From a virus: 64,000 nt of DNA. This document shows, piece after piece, positions 17,570 through 63,465 of this stretch; the first letter of the stretch is position 1; each line of letters begins with the position of its first letter. Under the pieces are notes generated by a model, which ran no database searches, was not told the DNA's origin, and was given only the letters and a program-made list of their open reading frames with translations. The stretch lies in IMG/VR virus record IMGVR_UViG_3300025383_000010; one strand, 5' to 3'. The position numbers were made by a program, and so were the translations under genes.

Positions 17570-17675
17570 ATAGCTATTTATCTGGTATGACCAAAGATAT
17601 ACATTAAAGGCTTGACATAGGCATACTATTGTGCTATAACAAGTAGTATTTGATAGAGATATGGATAAATAGTAG

Positions 17676-18221
17676 ATGAAGATCACGGAACTCCTAGAAA
17701 ATGTACAGGAACAGAAACCTATCGTCTATGTTGACATGGATGGAGTACTTGCTGACCTCTACAATCACGCTGCCGACTTGCATGATGTTGATCACTACAA
17801 CGATATGAGCAAGGAAGAATGGGAAACGTTCTTCAAGGATAGTGATGCTTATCACTTGTTTCGTGATATTCCATCCTTTGCTACTGCTAACAAACTGCTT
17901 GAACTTGTAAAGAAGTATGCAGATGGTTATACTATTCTTAGTAGCCCACTGAGCTTTGATAAGGCAGGTAGCATTAAGGGCAAAACTGAGTGGCTCAAAA
18001 AGCATATCAAGGTAAAGCCCGATAACGTAATCTTTGAGCATGACAAGTACAAGTATGCTGTTCAACCTGATGGCACTCCCAACGTGTTGATTGACGATTA
18101 CGGTGTCAACACTCGTGCTTGGAATGAACACGATGGAGTTGCTTGCAAGTATCAAGCTGATGAAGATTCTCTGGATAAGGTGGTAGCAGTTCTGCAAAAG
18201 GTCTTCGGCAAAGATAAATAA
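17676..18221 (+). CDS. 5'(3')-deoxyribonucleotidase (HAD)
   Basis: VDMDGVLAD, ILSSP, K..WL, LIDD. Confidence 0.85.
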   Translation: MKITELLENVQEQKPIVYVDMDGVLADLYNHAADLHDVDHYNDMSKEEWETFFKDSDAYHLFRDIPSFATANKLLELVKKYADGYTILSSPLSFDKAGSIKGKTEWLKKHIKVKPDNVIFEHDKYKYAVQPDGTPNVLIDDYGVNTRAWNEHDGVACKYQADEDSLDKVVAVLQKVFGKDK

Positions 18222-45768: not shown

Positions 45769-45817
45769 AAGAGTATTTATACTCTACCTAATAAAACTGC
45801 TATTTAAGTGATAAGTT

Positions 45818-62372: not shown

Positions 62373-62429
62373 ACGATCAACTTTGTATAGTTACATTATA
62401 TATGCTTTGATATACGATGTCAAATATTT

Positions 62430-62503
62430 TGGATCCCCGAACTGGATTCGAACCAATATAAACAGAGTCAGAGTCTGTTGTCCTACCATTGAACGATCGG
62501 GGA
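62430..62503 (-). tRNA. tRNA-Gln(CUG)
   Basis: Cloverleaf, U1-A72. Confidence 0.9.
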
Positions 62504-62821
62504 ATGAAATCTATTCATATTAACACACTCGGGGTGCCGATTCCTGCAAATTCAGAGTATGAGGGGCGTTGTTTTGCCGTTATGTGTTTATAAGAATAGA
62601 TTTAGCCTTTTGTTGACAAGCGATCTATGTTGTCTGGCATTTCAGACTTGACCGCTTGAGAGGATCGTAATGTCCTCATCTGATAGATTTTTCATCACCC
62701 TCAGGTGAATCCATCCTTACCACCGCCCGTTCTTTTTTTATAGTGCTTTGCAGCCTCGTTCCGACTTGCACTTTTGTCAGTCTTTCACCTGACTGTCAGA
62801 GATTTACTTTCTGACTAATGG

Positions 62822-62850
62822 AAAACCCCAAGAACTTGAGTCCCCGGGGT
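62822..62850 (-). terminator. Terminator-like hairpin downstream of leader peptide
   Basis: ACCCCGGGGA-CTCAAG-TTCTTGGGGT-TTT; short U tract. Confidence 0.6.
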
Positions 62851-62879
62851 CTAAATAAACATGTTTATACTATGTCTAC

Positions 62880-63023
62880 CTAACCGCCGGGCTGTTGTTC
62901 CACTGCTGGGTCAAAGCTGCCGCGAATGCTTGTATTATATGACGCCGCGACCATGCCCAATGAGGATAATTGTCCCCAGAGTGTATGCTTTTTCAGCGAT
63001 ATGTTACAAGTGTTAGTAGTCAT
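62880..63023 (-). CDS. Putative attenuator leader peptide (47 aa)
   Basis: MTTNTCNISLKKHTLWGQLSSLGMVAASYNTSIRGSFDPAVEQQPGG*; GATAAATA 8 nt upstream of ATG. Confidence 0.55.
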   Translation of the reverse strand: MTTNTCNISLKKHTLWGQLSSLGMVAASYNTSIRGSFDPAVEQQPGG

Positions 63024-63161
63024 AGTGCTAGTATTTATCCCTGGCTTAAAATATGTTCATTTAAGATGCTGTTTTGGTGATTTCTCAACAATCAACATCA
63101 TATTCTCTCTTATATATCATTCAGAAACGAATGTCAACCTTTTTTTCAAAAAATTAGAGTG

Positions 63162-63305: not shown

Positions 63306-63394
63306 TCTAGAAATCCTTTTCTTCGCTCTTGATATACTCTTATAACAAGTTTGGGTACACTTGTCAACCAAAAAATCACCTTCTCGTGAATAAA

Positions 63395-63465
63395 GATAAA
63401 TAAAAGTGAGTCGCGGAACGCCAATTCCCACTCACACTAACGCTTGAAAGGAGCAATCAGCTATG
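63395..63465 (+). promoter_or_regulatory. Late promoter plus structured leader of HNH gene (copy 2)
   Basis: GATAAATA; GTGAGT/ACTCAC stem; GGAGCAATCAGCTATG. Confidence 0.75.

Follow-up and report, generated by a model that had tools for sequence, protein, structure and literature searches.

A putative leader-peptide attenuator sampling all 20 amino acids at the head of a phage tRNA cluster

Transcription attenuators controlled by a leader peptide are well known from amino-acid operons, where trpL, hisL, leuL, thrL, ilvL and pheL are examples. For amino-acid-operon attenuators, see also PMC1183508 and PMC3082878. The locus described here lies on the minus strand of a 64,000-nucleotide stretch of viral DNA (IMG/VR record IMGVR_UViG_3300025383_000010), the whole of which is referred to as the window. 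Like these attenuators, it has a promoter-proximal short ORF followed by a terminator and a mutually exclusive antiterminator, and the position of the ribosome is predicted to choose between the hairpins, with a ribosome at the stop codon favouring termination. In contrast to the trp and his type, the phage leader contains no run of codons for a single amino acid and samples all 20 amino acids and most tRNA species. It also lacks a strong 1:2 hairpin, and its untranslated RNA should read through instead of terminating. Furthermore, the element would control a non-coding RNA (ncRNA) and tRNAs rather than biosynthetic enzymes, and its ORF has 3-4 times the length of trpL or hisL.

In the toiL-topAI system, reportedly described by Baniulyte and Wade in 2019, an upstream ORF is said to sense general translation stress. 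Systems of this kind use Rho together with masking of a ribosome-binding site, and they respond to antibiotics. The phage element resembles toiL-topAI in that one leader ORF would report many kinds of ribosome slowing instead of the shortage of a single amino acid, while it differs in being a predicted intrinsic terminator/antiterminator pair whose ORF composition looks selected for breadth. It also resembles T-box leaders, in which tRNA status is reported through a terminator/antiterminator decision ahead of genes related to translation. A T-box, however, works without a ribosome, by direct binding of a single uncharged tRNA. In the window region and five relatives, no match to a T-box (stem I with a specifier loop, antiterminator bulge) or to any other Rfam family was obtained at an E-value of <=1.

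Phage T4 carries rIIA and rIIB, a tRNA cluster starting with tRNA-Gln, and the stable species 1 and 2 RNAs of unknown function. The phage studied here similarly carries rIIA and rIIB and a cluster headed by tRNA-Gln, with a small RNA alongside. A difference is that nothing matching this ncRNA was detected among 50,697 phage records. To our knowledge, neither a leader ORF nor an attenuator has been described for T4, and an element of the kind reported here was not described anywhere in our literature searches.

Layout and conservation of the leader locus

The locus had been singled out by a first-pass annotation as a putative general tRNA-shortage attenuator. The promoter, the GATAAATA motif followed by 8 nt and an ATG, the 47-codon ORF and the hairpin with its U run are all found where that annotation had placed them (Table 1). 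The putative attenuator is compact, with ~320 nt from promoter to U run.

Table 1. Positions of the features at the leader locus, in window coordinates.
Feature	Coordinates	Strand	Details
Sigma70-type early promoter	63109..63137	-	TTGACA 63137-63132, 17-nt spacer, TATAAG 63114-63109; near-consensus; read directly
GATAAATA, late-promoter-like motif of this phage	63032..63039	-	8 nt upstream of ATG (63023)
Leader ORF	62880..63023	-	47 codons + TAG (62882-62880); all 20 amino acids, 36 distinct codons
Predicted antiterminator hairpin	62843..62891	-	23 bp; dG -23.7, z -5.66 vs 200 dinucleotide shuffles
Terminator-like hairpin	62822..62851	-	GACCCCGGGGAC, loop UCAA, GUUCUUGGGGUU (62851-62824); U run 62825-62822, then CC
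Two tandem small hairpins (GUCAG...CUGAC, twice)	62776..62815	-	Between U run and ncRNA
Conserved structured ncRNA	62602..62772	-	~170 nt; alignments A1, A2; present in 83 loci
tRNA-Gln(CUG), first cluster gene	62430..62503	-	ARAGORN + Rfam; synteny kept in relatives
Internal promoter	62395..62423	-	TTGACA-17-TATAAT; 12/12 consensus positions; between tRNA-Gln(CUG) and tRNA-Gln(UUG)

Transcription from the early promoter probably starts near 63102 on the minus strand, and a leader of ~75 nt lies between this promoter and GATAAATA. In 44 of 50 unique relatives, a TTGACA precedes the ATG by 106-118 nt, most commonly by 113-115 nt (alignment A1). The GATAAATA motif recurs in the window upstream of structural genes at 18213, 22891 and 29366. 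In the relatives, the context CAGGAcTAA(A/G)TA-N8-ATG is conserved with the same spacing as in the window: TAAATA followed by exactly 8 nt and the ATG is present in 25 of 50 unique relatives, and 12 carry TAAGTA instead, which makes it doubtful that TAAATA is a late promoter in all of them. No Shine-Dalgarno sequence was found upstream of the leader ATG.

Two further promoter-like patterns were observed elsewhere in the window. Many genes lack a ribosome-binding site and carry (N)ATAAATA just 4-5 nt upstream of the ATG (e.g. at 17664, 19703, 20654 and 45369, and also at 45781, 51884, 51946 and 55513); if this motif acts like a T4 late promoter, those late mRNAs would be leaderless. In addition, a repeat of ~70 nt at 63320-63460 on the minus strand bears a promoter, with an A/T-rich upstream part, TTGACA and then TATAAG. 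It has five matches of 42-78 nt at 74-86% identity, among 16 mostly short ones, in a related contig (G001), and it looks like an extended early promoter family.

The 47-residue product of the leader has short homologues in metagenomes, and their loci align with the window from the promoter through the non-coding block. Using the nearly invariant start of the ncRNA as a DNA pattern, further loci were found on 28 viral and 48 metagenome contigs, some of them >300 kb. The leader ORF is present in 80 metagenomic phage loci; the encoded peptides, 44 of them unique, are 45-48 residues long. When 1.84 billion proteins were searched with a profile, only other short ORFs matched. Five of the most distant of these matches, fetched by protein and therefore independent of the RNA motif, were added to the set; four of them show the layout of the window, and the fifth contig (L103) stops 25 nt past the stop codon. 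Wherever enough downstream DNA is available, the module stands ahead of a tRNA cluster, with tRNA-Gln first in nearly all cases.

DNA and protein searches of the 50,697 phage records returned no close relative, only tRNA-Gln matches and rIIA at 27-39% identity. The IMG/VR relatives found through rIIA could not be used: one contig breaks off inside the tRNA cluster, and on another the 40 kb upstream of rIIA contain no tRNAs. The leader, its peptide and the ncRNA had no match in Rfam, Pfam or PHROGs.

The leader frame is open in all 49 unique nucleotide versions, and the other two sense frames contain 2.7-3.0 stops each. Among relatives, the ORF ranges from 135 to 144 nt in length with differences of whole codons only, and the positions of the ATG and the stop codon relative to the hairpin are conserved. 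The pN/pS of 0.61 in the leader frame is the lowest of the six frames, and codon position 3 is the most variable (entropy sums of 27.7, 30.3 and 38.9 for the three positions). From these patterns, we infer that the leader ORF is translated, although a pN/pS of this size suggests that amino-acid constraint on the peptide is modest. An antisense ORF of 51 codons (62861-63016, plus strand) was rejected as a candidate: although 43 of 49 versions keep its frame open, no start is conserved, and the frame is broken in at least six lineages. That this frame is often open is probably a by-product of the wobble positions it has in common with the sense frame.

The same patterns bear on the idea that the element is an RNA-only switch, or a 5′ domain of the ncRNA, with hairpins that answer a protein, a ligand or temperature and an ORF that is never translated. 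Such a switch would account for the unusual conservation of synonymous sites in the leader, where several positions never vary (ATA, CGC, ACA, TTT), and it fits the missing Shine-Dalgarno sequence as well as the highly structured neighbouring ncRNA. However, the consistently open frame, the in-frame length changes, the fixed start and stop and the variable third codon position all argue against it, and the amino-acid completeness described below has no rationale at the RNA level. We therefore consider this explanation very improbable.

Alternative hairpins at the leader stop codon

In the first-pass annotation, CCCGG(C)GGUU at the end of the ORF was noted as complementary to GACCCCGGG. This complementarity is real, yet it forms only the base of a longer 23-bp hairpin (62891-62843). 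The 5′ strand of this antiterminator (62891-62869) consists of CCCGG, a bulged C, GGU, the stop codon and GUAGACAU, while its 3′ strand (62864-62843) consists of AUGUUUAUUUA followed by GACCCCGGG, which is also the 5′ arm of the terminator. The leader stop is separated from the GC-rich terminator hairpin by an AT-rich 28-nt spacer. When both conformers were folded, as the annotation had proposed, dG was -23.7 for the antiterminator and -18.4 for the terminator (z -3.3). Blocking the footprint of a ribosome at the stop codon in the folding left the terminator as the only structure formed in the window.

The terminator hairpin is conserved among the relatives as a GC-rich stem of 8-13 bp with -12.6 to -18.8 kcal/mol. 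A simple terminator scan of the window did not list the leader hairpin. Its U tract comprises 4 U in the window and 6 in several relatives; nearly all relatives have 4-6 U, and the tract is absent in one subclade (L046, L051, L054 and L099). Both earlier caveats, namely that the U tract is short and that internal promoters also feed the cluster, hold. The hairpin with the U run is predicted to terminate transcription.

The minimum-energy fold of the nascent RNA is the extended antiterminator hairpin in all 42 unique relatives, with a mean dG of -22.3 kcal/mol and a mean z of -4.5 against dinucleotide shuffles, and in 39 of them it is more stable than the terminator. Its pairing persists despite very different spacers (L052, L058 and L068). 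In 37 of 42 cases, the two strands of a relative pair better with each other than with strands swapped in from divergent lineages. Across alignment A3, 96.8% of the cells are paired in the terminator state and 89.4% in the antiterminator state.

Covariation connects the two states directly. Column 230 of A3, a C or U in the shared 5′ arm, pairs with terminator column 250 (C-G in 11 sequences, U-A in 11) and also with column 181 in the end of the ORF (G-C in 10, G-U in 8, A-U in 3). The resulting three-way G/A, C/U and G/A covariation links the ORF end, the 5′ arm and the 3′ side of the terminator. Within the terminator, the C-G pair is replaced by U-A in 11 of 24 sequences. The annotation had suggested looking in related phages for a conserved short ORF, a stop codon overlapping the antiterminator and covarying arms, and each of these was found; the leader stop codon lies inside the antiterminator 5′ strand in all 42 unique sequences. 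Judged by sequence comparison, the anatomy of a leader-peptide attenuator is present at this locus and is conserved with covariation.

The C-termini of the peptide diverge between lineages (PGG, PGNR, GFRD, GPGIK and DGGTQV), and their nucleotides nevertheless keep the antiterminator pairing. This observation bears on a second explanation, in which the ORF simply encodes an ordinary small phage protein and has an intrinsic terminator of its own, its 3′ end overlaps a hairpin by coincidence, and the ncRNA and tRNAs are reached by leaky read-through. The ORF is conserved, its start context is the usual late-gene type of this phage, and a hairpin with a U run follows; moreover, many small phage genes belong to no known family. 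On the other hand, such a gene does not explain the free variation of the C-terminal residues alongside the preserved pairing of their nucleotides with the 5′ arm of the terminator, and no fold is predicted for the peptide (AlphaFold gave no confident one, with a pLDDT of 57.5). An ordinary small gene is thus improbable, and the position of the ncRNA, considered below, lowers its standing further.

In the full segment at equilibrium, a spacer hairpin together with the terminator (-27.8) beats the antiterminator (-23.7). Therefore, the attenuator model rests on kinetics, and polymerase and ribosome would be kinetically coupled. Pairing of the 1:2 type is weak: the best duplex of the antiterminator strand with the upstream ORF averages -9.5 compared with -23 kcal/mol, which suggests that untranslated RNA defaults to read-through. 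A weak hairpin within the ORF (62952-62915) has partial support. A long-range interaction between the TAAATA region ahead of the ATG and GUUUAUUUAG downstream of the stop codon was rejected, as it is lost in L052, L058 and L068 while the local hairpin is kept.

Amino-acid and tRNA breadth of the leader

A direct count confirmed the earlier statement that each of the 20 amino acids and 36 distinct codons occur in the leader of the window. Of the 44 unique leader peptides, 39 have the full set of 20 amino acids, and the remaining five lack Cys only. Among 28 representatives with a median pairwise identity of 38%, 20 contain all 20 amino acids, seven contain 19 and one contains 18. The chance that a single sequence is complete is 1.2% for real 47-residue windows from the long ORFs of this phage, and 2.2% and 2.6% for random draws from the phage and family compositions, respectively. 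When residues were shuffled within columns, which retains the conservation of each alignment column, 18.7 of 44 and 5.6 of 28 complete sequences were expected, and the observed 39 and 20 were never reached in 5,000 shuffles, although the composition tests ignore shared ancestry and their significance is thus overstated. Even so, at 38% identity inheritance alone would hardly explain the effect. Trp, His, Asp, Glu and Lys, when missing from their usual column, turn up elsewhere in the leader.

The 36 distinct codons compare with 33.2 expected from the amino acids of the leader (P = 0.115) and with 27.4 ± 3.2 in real 47-codon windows of this phage (P = 0.005). The first-pass caveat that 36 codons are barely above the ~33 of random codons was therefore too conservative, since real genes of this phage average 27.4. 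Under simple wobble rules, the window's leader calls on 32 of the 37 phage anticodon species, whereas equal windows of the phage's long ORFs need 21.8 ± 2.8 tRNA species, with a maximum of 30 (10,251 windows). No run of regulatory codons for one amino acid was found in the leader, all 20 amino acids being present and most of them 1-4 times. Combined, these results look as though selection has favoured a leader that samples a broad range of amino acids and tRNA species. The conserved ORF, the two covarying hairpins and this composition bias are established in silico.

With a stall in any of the final 5-9 codons, the ribosome would continue to cover the antiterminator strand. The stall-sensing zone of the leader holds 18-20 amino-acid types, and Glu lies outside it in 24 of 42 members, which speaks against the leader as a gauge of total decoding. 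In the window, the single Glu codon is codon 42, which a terminating ribosome would overshadow. The first-pass proposal that shortage of any tRNA could serve as the input is consequently upheld in part. Retention of all 20 amino acids down to 38% identity and the use of 32 of 37 species favour it, but the frequent masking of Glu and the conserved order of residues do not.

Conservation of the residue order extends to about Phe37, beyond which the peptide varies. The conserved residues are I8, L10, Q12, H13, L15, W16, Y29, T31, R34 and F37, of which Tyr29 and Arg34 are invariant across the 44 leader sequences. This order, like the invariant synonymous sites, is not needed by a pure composition sensor. 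It fits specific arrest of the ribosome at least as well as a composition gauge, suggesting a third explanation in which an identical RNA switch takes its input from a nascent-peptide arrest like those of SecM, TnaC or SpeFL. Here, the conserved residues would stall the ribosome near codon 37-38 upon encountering a ligand or factor, leaving the antiterminator free. The peptide conservation ends exactly where a stalled ribosome ceases to mask the antiterminator, and the two invariant residues point in the same direction. However, the pN/pS of 0.61 indicates weak amino-acid constraint, part of the conservation lies at synonymous sites, and no known arrest motif was identified in the peptide. Retention of all 20 amino acids and of 32 of 37 tRNA species would also stay unexplained. 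Specific arrest is therefore unlikely in our estimation, though it is the strongest of the three alternatives to an attenuator that gauges decoding speed. For the latter, it is favourable that the peptide has neither a confident fold nor a known family.

The members with incomplete leaders show further peculiarities. The Cys-less subclade (L046, L051, L054 and L099) also has a damaged or missing U tract (GGGUUAACC). L106, the only member with 18 amino-acid types, has a promoter directly after the terminator. The coincidence of amino-acid loss with a damaged U tract or an extra promoter in the same members suggests a joint decay of composition and switch. The possibility that a Cys-less leader simply reflects a phage without tRNA-Cys was ruled out, because the leader of L046 lacks Cys and yet this phage has tRNA-Cys; the same combination also counts against the composition gauge.

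Downstream genes and the proposed switch

The GUCAG...CUGAC hairpins that follow the U run occur in about half of the relatives, termed the long class, and are cleanly absent in the short class. The ncRNA starts 8-50 nt past the U run, too close in the short class for a promoter to fit in between. Read-through must thus occur regularly, which argues against the small-gene explanation. In the 83 loci, the 5′ 50 nt of the ncRNA barely vary, and its first 33 nt (GUGCAAGUCGGAACGAG...GCAAAGCAC) are invariant except for three adjacent bases. Compensatory changes were found in 8 of 33 predicted pairs, and at least three architectural variants exist (e.g. L046/L051 and L028/L052; loci L020-L106). The opening of the ncRNA resembles what we take to be a segment of 16S rRNA (UGCAAGUCGAACG), a likeness that may be due to chance. 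In one lineage (L021 and L022, 3636-4262), a QueC-like gene of the 7-cyano-7-deazaguanine synthase family lies between the ncRNA and the first tRNAs.

ARAGORN counts 43 tRNAs in the window, one more than the 42 given in the first-pass annotation. A promoter at the position of the internal one (Table 1) is present in nearly every relative in which tRNA-Gln(CUG) comes first, and it is absent in the clades headed by tRNA-Gln(UUG). In the clades without this promoter, tightly packed tRNAs follow. As the internal promoter follows tRNA-Gln(CUG), the switch in the window would directly gate only the ncRNA and tRNA-Gln(CUG) and merely add to the expression of the rest. Most window tRNAs are thereby independent of read-through, which weakens the case for a regulator of tRNA supply. 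The structural half of the originally proposed attenuator is strongly borne out by comparative evidence, whereas its control over the whole cluster shrinks to these two direct products.

We propose, with a probability of about 0.5, that the locus is a ribosome-dependent attenuator which reports overall decoding speed and terminates transcription when translation of the leader finishes on time. Transcription would begin at the early promoter, and perhaps also at a late promoter, which would give a nearly leaderless mRNA. As the polymerase traverses the 47-codon leader, the last three codons, the stop codon and a further 12 nt would pair with the next 22 nt, which include the 5′ arm of the terminator. 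The antiterminator would fold first and represent the default state, and a transcript that is untranslated or carries a lagging ribosome would consequently read through to the ncRNA, tRNA-Gln(CUG) and beyond. If the ribosome reaches the stop codon while the polymerase is still no more than ~60 nt away, it would cover the entire 5′ strand of the antiterminator. This would free the 5′ arm of the terminator, the terminator would form, and transcription would stop near 62822.

Since the leader contains all 20 amino acids and 36 codons and calls on 32 of 37 tRNA species, read-through would result from a delay at nearly any codon ahead of ~40. The element could then act as a speedometer of total decoding capacity, with negative feedback from the tRNAs under its control. 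The missing Shine-Dalgarno sequence and the window's U tract of just 4 U sit less easily with this proposal. Somewhat more tentatively, at slightly less than even odds, we suggest that in this family of large environmental phages the leader has been under selection for holding every amino acid and for drawing on the majority of the tRNA species that the phage itself encodes, thereby gauging decoding speed homeostatically. Whenever translation slows, such a gauge would switch on the ncRNA together with the head of the cluster, and it would switch them off again once the supply has recovered. The ncRNA, for its part, might affect the polymerase or the handling of tRNAs. A link to host anticodon nucleases is speculation.

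The element bears on why phages carry large sets of tRNAs and how these are regulated. The >40 natural variants of the locus already serve as compensatory mutants, and the highly conserved ncRNA of no known family is the first regulated product to which the analysis points. If the proposal is true, the element would be the first known demand-sensing regulator of phage tRNA expression, and it would extend leader-peptide attenuation from one amino acid to the whole decoding capacity. Viral tRNA supply would then be under homeostatic attenuation control, a logic undescribed for any attenuator.
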